A DNA stretch of 45,103 nt, from the NCBI GenBank assembly GCA_029838215.1, contig JALGVI010000015.1:1-45103 (forward strand), in the 5' to 3' direction. This document shows, piece by piece, positions 24,746 to 36,646 of this stretch (positions within the stretch are counted from its first letter, which is position 1; every line of letters begins with the position of its first letter). Position numbers and translations under genes: made by a program. The notes under the pieces were generated by a model. It was given only the letters and a program-made list of their open reading frames with translations. It ran no database searches and was not told the DNA's origin. This stretch comes from Candidatus Helarchaeota archaeon (lineage in GTDB: Archaea; Asgardarchaeota; Lokiarchaeia; Helarchaeales; RDOG01).

Positions 24746-25315
24746 ATGGTAGAAGAGACGCAAGTAAAACTCATAATTTTTAGTGCGTTATTAAGTGCAT
24801 TGCATGATATAATGGGAAAAGACGGAAAGAATTCAATCTTGCGCTTTGCTGGCTTATCTGAATACATAGATAAAGAAATTAGTCCGTCAGTTGATGATTC
24901 CATTCCATTCGATGTGGTCAAGAGGTTAATAGATGCCATGCAATCACTGCTGGGACACGGAACAAATGCCATTCTTTATGAATCGGGACGAAAATTTGCG
25001 GTTTACTTGTCTCCTTTTGGATATTCTTTAGAAGAAGTCATTCACAAGCTAGAAAAGTGGTTTGGAGGAAAATGGCAACTTGTTAAGGCAGGTGCCGAAA
25101 ATTCTACCGTCGTGAAGATTGAAAATAATCCGATTTGTCGCGGGTGTCATTCAGACAAACCTTATTGCCACATTGTTAGTGGAACACTTGCCCGAATCCG
25201 TGAGGAAGCAACAGGGGAAAAGAGTTTTGCAAAAGAAATCCGTTGTATAGCAATGGGACATGATGCATGTCAATTTGTAATAAAACCATATAATATGAAA
25301 GGAAAACGCGGCTAG
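24746..25315 (+). CDS. V4R (4-vinyl reductase / Bet3-related) domain protein
   Basis: G..AILYESGRKF, NPIC...PYCH..SGTL, EIRCIAMGHDACQF. Confidence 0.85.
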   Translation: MVEETQVKLIIFSALLSALHDIMGKDGKNSILRFAGLSEYIDKEISPSVDDSIPFDVVKRLIDAMQSLLGHGTNAILYESGRKFAVYLSPFGYSLEEVIHKLEKWFGGKWQLVKAGAENSTVVKIENNPICRGCHSDKPYCHIVSGTLARIREEATGEKSFAKEIRCIAMGHDACQFVIKPYNMKGKRG

Positions 25316-25328
25316 TGGATGGAATAAC

Positions 25329-25850
25329 ATGGGAAGCAAGTATGTTTTTAAGATAGTCGTATTGGGTTCAGAAGCAGTTGGAAAAACCTCGCTCATCAAT
25401 AGATACGCTGAAAAAAAGTTTACTTCAGAATATCACCCAACGCTTGGAACAAATATCATCATCAAGGAAGTAAATTTGCCCGATATTCAGAGTCAGGTCA
25501 AGTTAATGCTATGGGACATTGCTGGACAACGGAAATGGACGGAGGTTCGACATTTATATTATAAAGGTGCTCAAGGGGCACTTTTAGCATTTGACGTTAC
25601 CAGACCAACTACATACAACGCGATTTCAGAGTGGAATAAAGATCTTGCGGATTTTGTTGGGGAGGTCCCTAAAATCCTGATCGCAAATAAGATGGATTTA
25701 GTTGAAGATATCAAAATAAATGAGACGGAAGGGGAAAATATGGCAAAACAAATTAACGCTTTTGGCTTTCTAATGACTAGTGCTAAAACAGGCGAACGCG
25801 TGAATGACGCATTTGAATCTTTAGCAAAAGAGATAATCAGATCATCATAA
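25329..25850 (+). CDS. Rab-like small GTPase
   Basis: G1 GSEAVGKTS, G2 PTLG, G3 WDIAGQ, YYKGA, G4 NKMD, G5 TSAKTG; no C-terminal Cys. Confidence 0.93.
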   Translation: MGSKYVFKIVVLGSEAVGKTSLINRYAEKKFTSEYHPTLGTNIIIKEVNLPDIQSQVKLMLWDIAGQRKWTEVRHLYYKGAQGALLAFDVTRPTTYNAISEWNKDLADFVGEVPKILIANKMDLVEDIKINETEGENMAKQINAFGFLMTSAKTGERVNDAFESLAKEIIRSS

Positions 25851-25883
25851 ATAATGCTCAATTCTCCAAAAACTATCAGTTAG

Positions 25884-26840
25884 GTGAAAAAAATGGTCAA
25901 TCTCAACAAATTAAATACGTTACTAAATAACTTTATTGATTCTATTAACATGGTTGAAGCCACGATTCTCATGACTAAAGAAGGGTATATTATCACATCA
26001 ATTGTAAAAGATTTAGGGGAGGAATCGATTGGCGGCGTGACTCAAATCGTTCGATACATTTCCGATGTAATAACATTCGATCCAGCCCTCTCTGAAGAAC
26101 GAGGCATCAAAGAACTTTCTACACCAGAGAAACTTTTCATTTTTAGGCAAGTCGACCCAAAGATCATGTTTTGCGTCATTTGTAATCCACTAATTAATGG
26201 AAAAATCGCAAAAGCTTATTCTGAATTCGTTGCAAAAAAAATTGAACAGCTTCTGGAAGACAAGGACATTCCCTTAGAAATTCCCAAGATGGAACCGGAT
26301 GAAAAAGAAAAGGAAAAGGGCAAAGAATATGTTTTCAAGATTTGTGTCTTGGGTGATCCTGGTGTGGGAAAAACCACGTCCATCATCCAATTTGCACAAA
26401 GCCGGTTTGAGAGCGAATACAAATCAACGATTGGAGTATCAATCATAAAAAATGACCTTAATATCGATGGAGACACAATTCATCTCCAAATATGGGACAT
26501 CGCTGGACAAGAACGATGGGCAGGAATGCGACGCGTTTATTATGCAGGGTCTCTTGGAGCTCTATTATTATATGATGTTACCAGAGTTCAATCTTTTGAC
26601 AACCTTGAAAAATGGGTAAATGAGTTCCAAACGTATACGTCTTCAGAGAATCCATTGCTAATGATTGGTAATAAAATCGATTTAGTGCAAATTCGAAAAA
26701 TATCAAAGGAAGACGGAGAAAAGAAAGCAAGTGAATTTGGAATACCATATCTGGAAACATCAGCAAAAACTGCAGAGAATATTAATAGGGCATATGAAGA
26801 ACTAGCTCGAAGTCTAATTAGAAAAATATCTGAAGAATGA
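25884..26840 (+). CDS. Roadblock/LC7-like domain fused to a Rab-like small GTPase
   Basis: N-terminal VEATILMTKEGYIITS roadblock-like pattern; C-terminal GDPGVGKTT, STIG, WDIAGQE, NKID, ETSAKT. Confidence 0.88.
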   Translation: MKKMVNLNKLNTLLNNFIDSINMVEATILMTKEGYIITSIVKDLGEESIGGVTQIVRYISDVITFDPALSEERGIKELSTPEKLFIFRQVDPKIMFCVICNPLINGKIAKAYSEFVAKKIEQLLEDKDIPLEIPKMEPDEKEKEKGKEYVFKICVLGDPGVGKTTSIIQFAQSRFESEYKSTIGVSIIKNDLNIDGDTIHLQIWDIAGQERWAGMRRVYYAGSLGALLLYDVTRVQSFDNLEKWVNEFQTYTSSENPLLMIGNKIDLVQIRKISKEDGEKKASEFGIPYLETSAKTAENINRAYEELARSLIRKISEE

Positions 26841-27024: not shown

Positions 27025-27870
27025 TTAGGAGATTAGGAGGGTTTGTATGAACTCTTTATCAAGATCTAATTTACGGATTCGATCCCAGTCCTTTTTAAGA
27101 TATGGAAATGCCAGTTTTGAAACGATTTCCTTCATTTGATCCTTGAATATTTCTCGCATTAAATCCACGTAGAATCGAAATATTTGAGAGAGTCCTTTAC
27201 GCAGTTCGTGTTCTTTGATGTCTTGTTGAAACACGTTTAGAGTGAGGAGATCCCAGCCTTTTTCTGTATAATTCACGTTTTTAAAAGATTTTGGAAGTAA
27301 TTGCTTGATCGTTTCCATTTTTTGGTCAAGAATTTTTTCTCTACCCTTGACAATCGTATGGGTGACTTTTGATAATAGATGAAGGAGTTGTTGATATACT
27401 TCGATGACATCCATTAATTCTGCAGCTTTTGTGATTTTCTGGGCTTTTTTCCAATCTTGGTAGAGCTCGTCCATTTTTTCCGTGAATACTTCAAACTGTG
27501 ATGTGTTTCCATCCCAATTATCTGAGAATTCGGGATCAAGAACAAATTCAAATTTATCATTGAAGTTAGTTTTTATCACGTTCAATTGCGCGCGGATTTC
27601 ATTGGAAGAATCATCCATCTCGGCTGCCGTGATGAATAATAGGTTTGGATCTTCAATATAAACCCACTTAAGTCCTCCCATTTCAATGCTCTCTATTGCT
27701 TTAAACTCTCGGGCTTTTTGATCGGGAGAGCAAGATATTTCTTCAGCAAACCGATAAAGTGCGGTTAGAAATGAAGTTAAAAGGTCGGGATCGGACACGG
27801 CTTTAGCATATGCGCGGTTAAAGATGTTTCTTCCTGATTTCAAATCTAAAATCCAAACCTCACGAATCAA
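27025..27870 (-). CDS. Longin-like domain protein with unknown helical C-terminal domain, paralogue A (TTG start)
   Basis: IREVWIL...SG..IF.R.Y, LLTSFLTALY.FAE, IESIEMGGLKW.Y, LLFITAA; homologous to 35852..36646. Confidence 0.7.
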   Translation of the reverse strand: MIREVWILDLKSGRNIFNRAYAKAVSDPDLLTSFLTALYRFAEEISCSPDQKAREFKAIESIEMGGLKWVYIEDPNLLFITAAEMDDSSNEIRAQLNVIKTNFNDKFEFVLDPEFSDNWDGNTSQFEVFTEKMDELYQDWKKAQKITKAAELMDVIEVYQQLLHLLSKVTHTIVKGREKILDQKMETIKQLLPKSFKNVNYTEKGWDLLTLNVFQQDIKEHELRKGLSQIFRFYVDLMREIFKDQMKEIVSKLAFPYLKKDWDRIRKLDLDKEFIQTLLIS

Positions 27871-30280: not shown

Positions 30281-30362
30281 TTTTTTTCATTCTATCTCAT
30301 TTAGTGCCTCGATAAAACTCGTGATATTTAGATTATGCAAAATAATTAAAATGAGGCTACTA

Positions 30363-30406
30363 ACTTAAATTTATTAAGTCATAACGAAAACTTAATAATT
30401 TTAAGA
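30363..30406. promoter_or_regulatory. Two CTTAA-N5-TTAAG palindromes upstream of the roadblock operon
   Basis: ACTTAA-attta-TTAAGT (30363-30379) and ACTTAA-taatt-TTAAGA (30390-30406). Confidence 0.45.
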
Positions 30407-30482
30407 TTCAAAAACGATTCACATAGGAGAAAAGTAAGAATCTAAATATTATTCATGATATTTCACATGCTTGGTGGATTAG

Positions 30483-30941
30483 ATGGGTACTAAAAACATA
30501 GAAGAGAAATTAAAAAAAGTTCTCATCGAATTAATGGAAAAAACTTCTATCTACAATGCCGTGGTAGTGGATAAAAACGGGTTGCCCATCACGTCGTGGG
30601 ATGGAAAAAAAAATCAACCAATGGAAAGTGAAATTGAAATATTGGCTGCAGGTATTAGTTCTAGCATTCTGAATTTAAGCAAAAACATAAACCACATGAT
30701 GCGGATTAATCACGGTGATTTACAACAGATGATCATCGAAAATAAAAAGGGAAAGACAATTATTTGTGAAGCGGGTGAGAACTCACTAATAATTAGCAAT
30801 GTACCAGCGGATGCGTCATTAGGCATTACATTGCTTGCTTTGAAAAAAGCCGCAAAAGACGTTAGCAAGTTACCTGTCGGTCCTAAAGAGGTAAAAAAGA
30901 TTCCTGCAGATTTTGATTTTGAAATTCCCACTATTGATTAG
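30483..30941 (+). CDS. Roadblock/LC7 (MglB/LAMTOR-like) protein
   Basis: AVVVDKNGLPITS, LAAGISSSI, QQMIIENKKGK.II.EAG, ASLG..LL.LKKAA. Confidence 0.9.
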   Translation: MGTKNIEEKLKKVLIELMEKTSIYNAVVVDKNGLPITSWDGKKNQPMESEIEILAAGISSSILNLSKNINHMMRINHGDLQQMIIENKKGKTIICEAGENSLIISNVPADASLGITLLALKKAAKDVSKLPVGPKEVKKIPADFDFEIPTID

Positions 30942-30949
30942 GTGATTTC

Positions 30950-31237
30950 ATGAAAAGTTCACGAGATATCTTGCAGTCATTTTTTGAGCTTTCTGCTTCA
31001 ATGGAAGAGAATCCAGAAATTAAGAAAAGGATTGATGCTTTTATTGCAACGTTCAATCGCAGGGATCTTCGAAAAGCCAGTACGCGCATCCGAATTTGGA
31101 AGTTTTTAAACGATCTTCGAACTAAAGCCAGTCCAGACTTGAAAGATGGTTTTGAAGGTATTATGGCAGATTTGACAGTAAAATGGGAAGGCTCCCTTAA
31201 CCGGGCCTTGCGTGAAAACAAAATACGCGAAGAGTAA
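30950..31237 (+). CDS. Small helical hypothetical protein
   Basis: AGGTGA RBS; 8 bp after the roadblock stop and 5 bp before the next start. Confidence 0.75.
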   Translation: MKSSRDILQSFFELSASMEENPEIKKRIDAFIATFNRRDLRKASTRIRIWKFLNDLRTKASPDLKDGFEGIMADLTVKWEGSLNRALRENKIREE

Positions 31238-31242
31238 CTCTA

Positions 31243-32526
31243 ATGGAACCAATAGAACTTATTTTTAAATTACGTGAGGGAATAGACGAAACTAACTTCC
31301 AAATAAGCGATTTAAAAGACCAGCTTTCAGCAGGAAAACTATCCATTAAAGAACATGAAAAAAAGAAAAAGAAGTTAGAGAAATATATTGCTGAATTAAA
31401 TGCAAGAATTGATGTAATCAAGAAGAAGTTTTCACCATTACAAAAATACGTGTTGAACCAGACCGATGAGGTTCTCGAACATTATCAAGCAGAGTTGGAT
31501 CTCACGCAAATTGGCATTTTAAAGGTTCTTTTTCTGTTGGATCAAGAAACGTATTTCATAGTTCCCGTAGATTTTCGCGACCCAAAACATGTAAAAGTCG
31601 AATTTCCAACCGAGTTGAGTGATTTAATCGGATCGGCAGATGAATTGCAAGCATTAAAAGAAGTTCCCGCAGATGGATTCCAAGTCAAAGTCATCCTTGA
31701 TGAAATTCAAAGCAGGTTAAATTCGAAACAAGACATGTTCAATGAAATCGACTTGCTTTCCGAGCAATTTACCATTTCAAAAACATCTTCAAAAACACGG
31801 GTTGAGGTAACGCTCTATGGACTTGACATGCAGGAATTCTCTCTTTTCGTGGATGTCGGACCATACCCTGATCCTCCCGTACTTCAATTGACACCATCGT
31901 TACAAAAGCACGTGTCGCTGAACGCATTACGAATCTTGAAAAATTGGGATCCGCAAAGGTTTCACGTGTATAACGTAATACAAGAGATTTCGTTGATTTT
32001 AGATAAAAAATTGCGACTTAATAGGGAGATGGAATTATTTGAGAAGTTTAAGATTCCTGCAACTTTGGATGAAACGAATGGCATCATAAAAGTAGTGTTG
32101 CAAGAGAGTCCGCAAAGTCCTCAAATCACATTCCTCATCAAGATACCTCCAAATTATCCACACTCACCCCCATTAGTCGAACAAGTAAACCCCATGTCAA
32201 ACGAGGCATTGAATGAACAAATTCTTACCCGATTGAATCAGGCCACGTCGGAATATTTAGAATTACAAAATTTTGCAGAGGTCTTTTCAGAGATCTTGGA
32301 CATCATGAAAGAACATTCAGAATACGTGTGCGTTGAATGTAAGCAATTCAAGTGCCCAACTTGCGGAAAAAACTTGTTTAGTTCTATTGCAGGAGTCATT
32401 GGAGAAAATAATTGTTATCGAAGAACCAAGTGTTGTGGTGCCACGTTACATGAGTGCTGTTATAGGTTCTTTGTTGGACGAGACCATAAGTGCCCTGCAT
32501 GCGGAGCTGCTATTAGTCGCCTCTAA
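31243..32526 (+). CDS. Coiled coil + three UEV/RWD (inactive E2-like) folds + C-terminal zinc knuckle/RING
   Basis: YPDPP and NYPHSPP motifs; ALRILKNWDP matches the E2 C-L-x-I-L-x-x-x-W-x-P region without the Cys; CVEC-CPTC...CCGATLHECC...CPAC. Confidence 0.75.
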   Translation: MEPIELIFKLREGIDETNFQISDLKDQLSAGKLSIKEHEKKKKKLEKYIAELNARIDVIKKKFSPLQKYVLNQTDEVLEHYQAELDLTQIGILKVLFLLDQETYFIVPVDFRDPKHVKVEFPTELSDLIGSADELQALKEVPADGFQVKVILDEIQSRLNSKQDMFNEIDLLSEQFTISKTSSKTRVEVTLYGLDMQEFSLFVDVGPYPDPPVLQLTPSLQKHVSLNALRILKNWDPQRFHVYNVIQEISLILDKKLRLNREMELFEKFKIPATLDETNGIIKVVLQESPQSPQITFLIKIPPNYPHSPPLVEQVNPMSNEALNEQILTRLNQATSEYLELQNFAEVFSEILDIMKEHSEYVCVECKQFKCPTCGKNLFSSIAGVIGENNCYRRTKCCGATLHECCYRFFVGRDHKCPACGAAISRL

Positions 32527-32600: not shown

Positions 32601-33017
32601 TTATCCGCCCATATCAAGCCCTAATTCTTCTCCCACGATCTCTAAGATGGAGCGAAGAGCCATGGCTTTTGCCATTTCACCAACGATTTTAATATCGCCA
32701 GCCATATATGCAGAAGCAGTATCAACTTCACCAGTTAAAAGTCCAGAAGCAACATCTTCATTCATTTGGACTGTTACGGTGGGATTGTCAGGCATTCCCT
32801 CATCAGCTTTGAGTTTGCCGTCCTTAATCTCCATGTATGCAGCAGTAAGTCCTGGAACTTCCATGGCAATGATGACGTCTTCTTGATCTTCTAATTCTTC
32901 TTGAAGATCTTCGTTAGAAGCTGCTACTTCTTCGACGGCTTTTAAGAACAGGGGGAGTTTATTAGGATCGAATTGTTTTGATTCGATTAATTTTTTAACT
33001 TCGTCAACTGCACCCAT
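32601..33017 (-). CDS. Stand-alone SCP2 sterol/lipid-binding domain protein, copy 1
   Basis: EIKDGKL....G....PTVTV, LLTGEVD..SAYMAGDIKIVGEM..AM.L. Confidence 0.9.
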   Translation of the reverse strand: MGAVDEVKKLIESKQFDPNKLPLFLKAVEEVAASNEDLQEELEDQEDVIIAMEVPGLTAAYMEIKDGKLKADEGMPDNPTVTVQMNEDVASGLLTGEVDTASAYMAGDIKIVGEMAKAMALRSILEIVGEELGLDMGG

Positions 33018-34525: not shown

Positions 34526-34939
34526 TTATGTCCCGATATCCAAACCTAGATTTTCACCAACAATTTCGAGAATAGAACGGATGGCAAGTGCTTTAGCCAT
34601 CTCACCCGTGATTTCAATGTCACCTGAGGTATATGCGGTGGCAGTGTCAAGCTCGCCACTCATGAGATTTTGAGCAACTTGTTCGGACAATCGAATAGTG
34701 ACCGTGGGTTGTTCATGCATTCCTTCGCCCGCAGTAAGTTTGCCAGCTTTTATCTCAAGATAGGAAGATAAAACGTCTTTAACATCGAGTTGTATGACAA
34801 TATCGTCCTGTTCTTTTAATTCATTCGTTAGTTCTTCATTTGAATTTGCTATTTCTTCTATGGCTTTCATCAACAATGGGATGTCTTTAAGTTGATAATC
34901 CTTGTTCTTAATTTTCTCTTTAATTTGGTCTACAGCCAC
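34526..34939 (-). CDS. Stand-alone SCP2 domain protein, copy 2 (GTG start)
   Basis: Closely parallels 32601..33017 (PTVT, GELD.ATAY.SGDI.I.GEMAKAL.IRSILEIVGE.LGLD). Confidence 0.9.
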   Translation of the reverse strand: MAVDQIKEKIKNKDYQLKDIPLLMKAIEEIANSNEELTNELKEQDDIVIQLDVKDVLSSYLEIKAGKLTAGEGMHEQPTVTIRLSEQVAQNLMSGELDTATAYTSGDIEITGEMAKALAIRSILEIVGENLGLDIGT

Positions 34940-35851: not shown

Positions 35852-36646
35852 GTGAGAACGATGATTAAAGAATTATGGATTGTCGACAAGCAATCGGGAA
35901 CCACTCTCCTCCAGCGTGGTTACGGGCAGACTCAGACGAGTGAACGTTTAATGTCCGGTTTTTTACAAGCAATTTACGGACTTTATCAGTATGCGGAGTC
36001 GGAGTTGGCATCAGCTGAGGGTGGTAAGGGCTTGGAAAGCATAAACATGGTCGGCATGAGATGGTTATATGAAGAGAAAAAAGGATTGATTTTTATTGCT
36101 GCCACGGACAAGGAAACTCAATTGGAATTATTGCTAAGTCAATTGAACTTGATAGCTGACACGTTTATTGAAAAATTCGGCTCGCCGTTTGAAGCACTTT
36201 ATGGGGGGGGCTTGGAAAAATGGCTTGAAGGTGATTTTTCTCCATTCCTACTTGAATTGGATGATATTGTCTCGCAATGGGATCAGATGAAGCGTGTTGA
36301 GAATGCGGCAAAGGTCATGGATTTTCTTGACGTTGTTCAAAACGTCATGGAGCGATTCCAGAACTTCCCAGGTTTTGACACATTAATTGAAGGGGGGCAT
36401 CTCGACATTTTGGGACAGGCATTTGCAGATGGGAATTGGGACATGTCTTTTCTTTCAAGCATAGATGAATCCGACTTGCGAGAAAAGATCGAACGGATCT
36501 TCGGTCATATAATGGAATTCTTCATTTCCCAGGGCTTAGACGTTATCACGTTATGCAGGACATATCTTCATCCGTATTTCAAAACAGACTGGACGCGGAT
36601 AAAAGAAACGGGCTTGGACGATCTTTTAATCCAATTATTCATATAG
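35852..36646 (+). CDS. Longin-like domain protein with unknown helical C-terminal domain, paralogue B
   Basis: IKELWIVDKQSG..L, LMSGFLQAI, LESINMVGMRWLY, LIFIAA; homologous to 27025..27870. Confidence 0.7.
   Translation: MRTMIKELWIVDKQSGTTLLQRGYGQTQTSERLMSGFLQAIYGLYQYAESELASAEGGKGLESINMVGMRWLYEEKKGLIFIAATDKETQLELLLSQLNLIADTFIEKFGSPFEALYGGGLEKWLEGDFSPFLLELDDIVSQWDQMKRVENAAKVMDFLDVVQNVMERFQNFPGFDTLIEGGHLDILGQAFADGNWDMSFLSSIDESDLREKIERIFGHIMEFFISQGLDVITLCRTYLHPYFKTDWTRIKETGLDDLLIQLFI

Follow-up and report, generated by a model that had tools for sequence, protein, structure and literature searches.

A putative roadblock-associated RING ligase module, FANCL-like in domain order, encoded by an operon of the Helarchaeales

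Contig JALGVI010000015.1 of a Candidatus Helarchaeota archaeon (assembly GCA_029838215.1; order Helarchaeales of the Asgard class Lokiarchaeia) was analysed over its first 45,103 nucleotides, referred to below as the window. Three co-oriented open reading frames (ORFs) on its plus strand encode a Roadblock/LC7 protein of 152 aa (30483..30941), an orphan protein of 95 aa ('small95'; 30950..31237) and a 427-aa protein (31243..32526) in which three E2-like domains precede a RING finger. We read them, giving this about an even chance, as a lineage-specific Helarchaeales operon that co-expresses a roadblock/LC7 platform, the 95-aa partner and a putative roadblock-associated RING ligase module. The ligase-module reading rests on the architecture of the 427-aa protein, on the association of its family with ubiquitin-activating (E1) and ubiquitin-conjugating (E2) enzymes, and on a synteny that was conserved while the flanks changed.

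The three genes are tightly packed, and the ORF coordinates reproduce exactly the gaps of 8 and 5 bp that an earlier note on this DNA had reported. A 202-bp AT-rich gap after the RtcB gene (30281..30482, plus strand) is the putative promoter and 5' leader. Shine-Dalgarno-like sequences precede the first two genes, GGTGG 5 nt ahead of the roadblock ATG and GGTGA ahead of that of the 95-aa gene, and the 427-aa gene starts 5 bp past the stop codon of the latter. A search of sequencing runs returned a single sediment DNA run, containing a minor fraction of the words, and listed none of RNA.

Pseudo-E2 domains and RING finger of the 427-aa protein

An alignment of 27 family members was built and served as input for an AlphaFold2 (AF2) model of the 427-aa protein, the mean predicted local distance difference test score (pLDDT) of which was 90. 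The model begins with an N-terminal helical hairpin (aa 1-61, 31243..31425; helices 3-29 and 35-61, pLDDT 85-96), which is followed by three alpha-beta4-alpha(alpha) units and a Cys-rich tail. The units correspond to UBC-like domain 1 (aa 65-161, 31435..31725; alpha-beta4-alpha), UBC-like domain 2 (aa 163-255, 31729..32007), UBC-like/RWD domain 3 (aa 257-357, 32011..32313) and the tail to the C-terminal RING (aa 360-427, 32320..32523), all on the plus strand. Helices and domain limits lie almost exactly where the earlier note had placed an N-terminal coil and three repeats of ~95 aa, and the motifs that it quoted are present as written: YPDPP (208-212) and ALRILKNWDP (228-237) in domain 2, YPHSPP (305-310) in domain 3, and CVEC (363-366), CPTC (371-374), CCGATLHECC (397-406) and CPAC (417-420) in the finger. 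Its assignment of the repeats to UBC/RWD-type folds ahead of a RING was likewise upheld, by the AF2 model, by Foldseek and VIA structure searches and by profile comparisons.

The three repeats are homologous to one another beyond chance, as judged by profile-profile alignment with hhalign (domains 1 and 2, probability 99.3%, E 2e-20; domains 2 and 3, 95.6%, E 1e-8; domains 1 and 3, 93%, E 3e-7). Domain 3 is the one recognised directly. Pfam RWD (PF05773) matches it over aa 279-350 with 25.4 bits against a cut-off of 22.8, and the same model matches 22 of the 27 family members; sequence-profile matches in the PDB are to E2 enzymes at ~3e-6, hhalign pairs the domain with the E2s of its own genome at 96.6%, and VIA aligns it with E2 and RWD chains at Z ~11. 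Domains 1 and 2 alone had no significant match in Pfam or in the PDB sequence profiles, and their fold is assigned from the models and from their profile-profile similarity to domain 3. Folded by themselves, they gave a pLDDT of 93, and their top match in an unbiased VIA search of 48,161 PDB representatives was the human FANCL double-RWD (3zqs_B, Z 10.5; 169 of 186 residues aligned, root-mean-square deviation 5.1). Searched singly, domain 1 resembled E2 and RWD chains (Z 9-10), and domain 2 the UEV domains of VPS37A, Tsg101 and Vps23 (Z 8.5-9.9).

No cysteine occurs in aa 1-362, so no E2-like fold in this protein can form a thioester, and the three domains are catalytically dead E2 variants. 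An active E2 (UQ_con) was considered and rejected: the catalytic Cys after HPN is absent, and the position aligned to that of the genome's own E2s is not a Cys. The earlier note was therefore right in regarding the second repeat as inactive, but its equation of ALRILKNW with the C-L-D-I-L..W stretch of E2 enzymes is unproven, as domain 2 matched the genome's own E2s at a non-significant E of 0.03.

As had been proposed, the domain order resembles that of FANCL, which likewise consists of three successive Cys-less UBC-like folds (an ELF and a double RWD) followed by a C-terminal RING. In structure, the whole protein comes closest to FANCL (Foldseek 7kzp_L, E 6e-8, 398 columns, with 3k1l also found), and so do domains 1-2 (3zqs). 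After FANCL, Foldseek lists BRE/BRCC45, the Listerin RWD-RING, Knl1, CENP-O and Mediator subunits, and among eukaryotic Atlas clusters those of Listerin, FANCL, RNF25 and BRE lie closest. Domain 3 and the RING (aa 252-425) superpose on the Listerin RWD-RING (VIA Z 10.3, 156 residues); in Listerin (Ltn1) and RNF25, too, an RWD is directly followed by a RING. Unlike Listerin, the archaeal protein lacks HEAT repeats and any ribosome-quality-control context, and its UBC-like domains number three rather than one. The 427-aa protein is probably a ubiquitin ligase (E3) built like FANCL, the DNA-repair ligase of the human Fanconi anaemia core complex.

The RING itself differs from what had been expected. 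The earlier note described a FANCL-type C4HC3 RING; its core is C4HC3-like, but with four additional conserved ligands the total is 12, and the finger resembles the three-zinc finger of Rbx1. All 11 cysteines of the protein, together with His403, lie within aa 363-420 (C363, C366, C371, C374, C391, C397, C398, H403, C405, C406, C417 and C420), enough for three zinc ions, and across 26 sequences nine of the ligand columns show little or no variation. The finger profile matches the RINGs of RNF4, RCHY1, RBX1, Arkadia and HRD1 at 7e-6 to 1e-3, the first three at ~1e-5, and its alignment to RBX1 extends over the two N-terminal C-x2-C pairs, the inserted Cys and the H-x-H/C-C stretch. In two short relatives the first C-x2-C pair is missing, and with it both the inserted Cys and the additional His/Cys, a joint loss that fits a separable third zinc site. 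The sequence thus points to a finger that is probably an Rbx1-like, three-zinc RING containing a C4HC3-like core. Compared with the three-zinc RING-H2 fingers of Rbx1 and Apc11, the ligand number is equal, and the N-terminal pairs and the H-x-H/C-C stretch align; the spacing differs, however, around the third and fourth ligands, and the finger ends a protein of several domains rather than forming a small cullin-bound subunit.

Partner genes, conservation and ubiquitin context

The first gene encodes a bona fide member of Robl_LC7 (PF03259; Pfam 37.7 bits against a cut-off of 23, E 1.8e-9) with a conserved C-terminal tail at ~aa 116-152. It shares this domain with MglB, with the Ragulator LAMTOR subunits and with Asgard roadblock dimers. 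Among solved chains it is closest to archaeal-type roadblock proteins (9jue_D, 1.3e-13), and MglB chains in the PDB match at 4e-3 only. Identification as the MglB GTPase-activating protein (NCBIfam equivalog, 17.8 bits against a cut-off of 200) or as LAMTOR5 (21.2 bits against 27) was rejected; in contrast to these families, the operon contains no GTPase gene. Roadblock domains are dimeric platforms for small GTPases (PMC10933270, PMC3747258), and Tran et al. found that Asgard roadblock proteins form Ragulator-like dimers and that GTPase genes generally lie outside roadblock operons (PMC10933270). The 95-aa protein matched nothing in Pfam or NCBIfam, its only sequence homologues are its own orthologues, every match to PDB sequences was above E 0.03, and its Atlas feature matches were uninformative. 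An alignment of seven sequences has 23 invariant columns, and hhalign gave a probability of 0.8% for relatedness to the hairpin of the E3.

The order roadblock/95-aa/E3, with short gaps, was found in five genomes: that of the window and those of loci L001, L002, L003 and L008 (= G128). It is thus kept in all four relatives that have this E3, as the earlier note had anticipated. Identity of the E3 to that of the window is 56% in L001, 34% in L002, 65% in L003 and 32% in L008, and where it is only 32-34% the two small partners are still 48-56% and 50-55% identical. The surroundings vary among these four: RtcB directly precedes the trio in two of them, and in two a UbiA gene intervenes, by itself or together with a PHP gene; downstream, SCP2 occurs on either strand or is absent. 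The order of the trio was retained through extensive divergence while its flanks changed.

The wider distribution of the genes is consistent with a stepwise origin. Roadblock orthologues, including the C-terminal tail, occur throughout the order Helarchaeales and not beyond it. The 95-aa gene was found only in families f1 and f3, adjoining a roadblock orthologue in both. In f3 the two genes are adjacent and divergently transcribed, with no E3 nearby; in two f3 loci (L068 4216-7939 and L069 7096-10662) this divergent pair lies between RtcB and Archease. In f2 the roadblock orthologue stands alone, and the roadblock-linked E3 is present only in f1-type genomes. In a maximum-likelihood tree this E3 forms a clade (support 100/99) apart from the E1-linked and four-domain clades; its hairpin-less sister clade (96/92) comprises proteins of ~365 aa encoded at other loci in f2 and f3 genomes. 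The hairpin is seen in the alignment only in P0001-3, P0006, P0007 and P0022, and the last of these belongs to the P0022/G279 clade, which is not linked to roadblock genes and has a similar N-terminal coil. The simplest reading is that the E3 joined a more ancient roadblock/95-aa pair in the f1 lineage and gained its hairpin then. The earlier note had presented the E3-roadblock module as an Asgard feature; the conserved synteny stands, but the module belongs to one Helarchaeales family.

The family of the E3 extends further. An exhaustive, profile-free search yielded 31 clusters at 50% identity, and a scan of 400 genomes of the phylum returned strong matches almost only from inside the class (Lokiarchaeia-type Asgard). 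In the largest family of the class, 126 of 135 genomes have a family match, and the commonest form there is a protein of 560-600 aa with a fourth, N-terminal pseudo-E2 domain. This four-domain Lokiarchaeial form (~560-600 aa), which matches the window protein at E 1e-20 to 1e-30, shares both its domain types and its 12-ligand finger. The window clade differs from it in having three pseudo-E2 domains, the hairpin and partly degenerate E2-contact residues, and is the only clade of the family found beside a roadblock gene. The Atlas cluster nearest to the 427-aa protein is the Asgard pseudo-E2-array RING family (TM 0.60). Among less typical members, P0025, P0027 and P0028 carry an extra N-terminal RING-like finger (C-x2-C ... 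H-x2-C ... C-P-x-C) before the pseudo-E2 array (alignment A1, columns 1-100 and 260-400), and P0029, with a cation-ATPase N-terminus, looks chimeric. Sister-clade RING genes (L046 3208-4356; L048, L050 and L052) each precede the gene of a second finger protein of ~360-380 aa with zinc ribbons and a RING_2 / Prok-RING_1 finger, forming a tandem RING pair in f2/f3.

Genomic context ties the family to the ubiquitin pathway. The genome of the window encodes a 423-aa paralogue with three pseudo-E2 domains and a RING and without the hairpin (G000, contig C155:20321-21472, locus L007 8304-9575, minus strand); the gene of a 412-aa ThiF-type E1 lies 55 bp downstream of it. G126, G127 and G128 have this pair as well, and in G128 an E2 follows. 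The earlier note had suggested looking for co-occurring ubiquitin genes, and they are present: a ubiquitin-like protein with a GG terminus, E1, three E2s and nine JAB proteins, proteases among them. The ubiquitin-like protein ends in GG plus a six-residue extension and its gene lies directly upstream of an E2 gene; the other two E2 genes each precede a JAB/MPN protease gene (gene pairs at G000 C112:19206-19884, C161:8729-9695 and C122:27018-28071). In vitro, a reconstituted Helarchaeial cascade of E1, E2 and RING works (bioRxiv 10.1101/2023.07.25.550441).

Several other genes of the window were noted. At 24746-26840, 4-6 kb upstream of the trio, a V4R protein is encoded together with two Ras/Rab-like GTPases, the second of which has a 150-aa N-terminal extension in which Pfam calls no roadblock domain. 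The roadblock/95-aa pair has this V4R/two-GTPase block in its vicinity in f1 genomes generally, and in rearranged form in those of f3 (L001, L043, L068, L069). The genes at 27025-27870 (minus strand) and 35852-36646 encode paralogous proteins with no Pfam match, which the earlier note had labelled longin-like; homologues of the former are located 2-3 kb from sister-clade RING genes in three f2 genomes (L046, L052, L053). Downstream of the trio, paralogous SCP2 sterol-carrier-like genes (32601-33017 and 34526-34939, minus strand) surround a class-II glutamine amidotransferase-like gene, an arrangement also kept in L001.

Weighing the explanations

In the ligase module that we favour, the RING would recruit one of the genome's three ubiquitin-charged E2 conjugates (E2~Ub), and the pseudo-E2 domains would bind substrate, ubiquitin or partners, by analogy with the ELF and double-RWD of FANCL, which bind ubiquitin and FANCD2, respectively, UBE2T being the partner of the FANCL RING (PMC4951507). 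The clade-specific N-terminal hairpin would dock the pre-existing roadblock/95-aa pair, and the roadblock dimer would act as a regulatory or targeting platform for the ligase. A complex prediction that combined the E3 with the 95-aa protein and two copies of the roadblock protein gave no answer (score 0.00), which speaks neither for nor against binding. Several observations weigh against this reading. The roadblock-E3 link is restricted to one Helarchaeales family and so appears to be a lineage-specific innovation; roadblock, Ras, E1 or ubiquitin neighbours were found at none of 39 Lokiarchaeial family loci; and roadblock genes are numerous, with 17 matches in this genome. In the finger of the window subclade, the Ile of the C-x-I-C loop (aligned to Rbx1 I44) is replaced by Glu or His (E365 here), one ligand has moved two positions (C397, not 395) and no basic 'linchpin' follows the last Cys, while the Trp after the sixth ligand is Tyr (Y407) in the window protein. 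We take these four to be E2-contact or E2~Ub-activating sites, and canonical E2~Ub activation may therefore be weakened, and is uncertain, in this subclade.

Those same four features speak for a non-catalytic scaffold, in which the zinc finger is structural and the pseudo-E2 array and coiled coil form an assembly platform, either holding the roadblock dimer and the 95-aa protein or simply binding ubiquitin or an E2. Such a protein would be comparable to the tandem RWDs of kinetochore proteins, BRE/BRCC45 and Mediator; coiled-coil tandem-RWD non-enzymes (Knl1, CENP-O/P, BRE and Med subunits) are indeed among the Foldseek and VIA matches, and the absence of Cys outside the finger agrees with this role. 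All 12 zinc ligands are, however, retained by every member of the clade, L008 retains the Ile and four of five members the Trp, and the sister and paralogous clades have canonical RING features and sit with E1 and E2. We consider a scaffold unlikely, though worth keeping in mind. We place at the same low level the possibility that the E3 is a transcriptional neighbour only, that is, a ligase acting on its own and corresponding in f1 to the sister clade without hairpin, which came to lie downstream of an already existing roadblock/95-aa pair and uses the promoter of that pair without being coupled to it physically or functionally. The roadblock/95-aa pair without E3 in f3, the sister clade at unrelated loci and the other family members without a roadblock neighbour are all compatible with this. 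Against it, adjacency has outlasted divergence to 32-34% identity, gene insertions and exchanges have affected either flank but have always spared the trio itself, and gain of the hairpin coincides with relocation of the E3.

Far less probable than either is true orthology to FANCL, with a role in a DNA-repair pathway of the Fanconi type. In its favour are the structural match, which is best to FANCL, the domain order common to both proteins, and Pfam FANCL_d1 matches in two of the 27 family members, at 2e-4. Yet the likeness is one of fold and domain order, at ~10% identity; the FANCL Pfam models (FANCL_d1/d2/d3, FANCL_C) have no match to the window protein, the finger is of the 12-ligand, Rbx1-like type and probably not a two-zinc C4HC3, and the family has three- and four-pseudo-E2 forms with strong matches almost only in one archaeal class. 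The archaeal protein adds the hairpin and the operon with a roadblock gene, and its locus has neither a DNA-repair nor a FANCD2/I or UBE2T context. A search of the genome for FancD2 (PF14631) was blank, but control genomes were equally so. Tromer et al. reported a single Asgard RWD-like sequence and placed FANCL among atypical RWDs (PMC6601020).

A more specific version of our reading, in which the trio forms one complex whose ligase is directed at, or switched by, the upstream Rab/Rag-like GTPase module (V4R and two Ras-family proteins), is doubtful in our view. Synteny with the V4R/Ras block within one order is weak evidence for a link to GTPase signalling, and the association of RtcB and Archease with the roadblock pair is as conserved as that of the GTPases. 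The earlier note had suggested a possible physical or regulatory link of roadblock proteins or small GTPases to ubiquitylation, which no result here supports, and an analogy with GATOR2 and Ragulator. The latter was not borne out and a WDR59-type module was rejected, as LAMTOR5 fell below its cut-off and no WD40 domain was found; a SEA-complex chain RWD was one of many tied E2/RWD structure matches.

Significance

Fusions of RWD/UEV pseudo-E2 domains with RINGs (FANCL, Listerin, RNF25, WDR59) and roadblock platforms are regarded as eukaryote-style machinery, and one Asgard lineage encodes a pseudo-E2-RING protein and a roadblock protein in a single conserved operon. What is new is this operon of the E3 with the roadblock and 95-aa genes, together with the hairpin and the restricted distribution of the clade. 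No description of the pseudo-E2-array RING family or of the roadblock-RING operon was found in the literature searched, although a mention in Liu et al. 2021 (Nature) is possible. The linkage occurs in one Helarchaeales family and therefore looks like a local innovation, which limits its weight for eukaryogenesis. The three proteins form a tractable system for studying the role of pseudo-E2 arrays in the archaeal ubiquitin pathway and for examining roadblock platforms as possible regulators or targeting devices of a ligase. If the trio does form one complex whose ligase is directed at, or switched by, the upstream GTPase module, it would be a prokaryotic precedent for coupling of an RWD-RING ligase to a roadblock GTPase platform, comparable to that between GATOR2 and Ragulator in eukaryotes.

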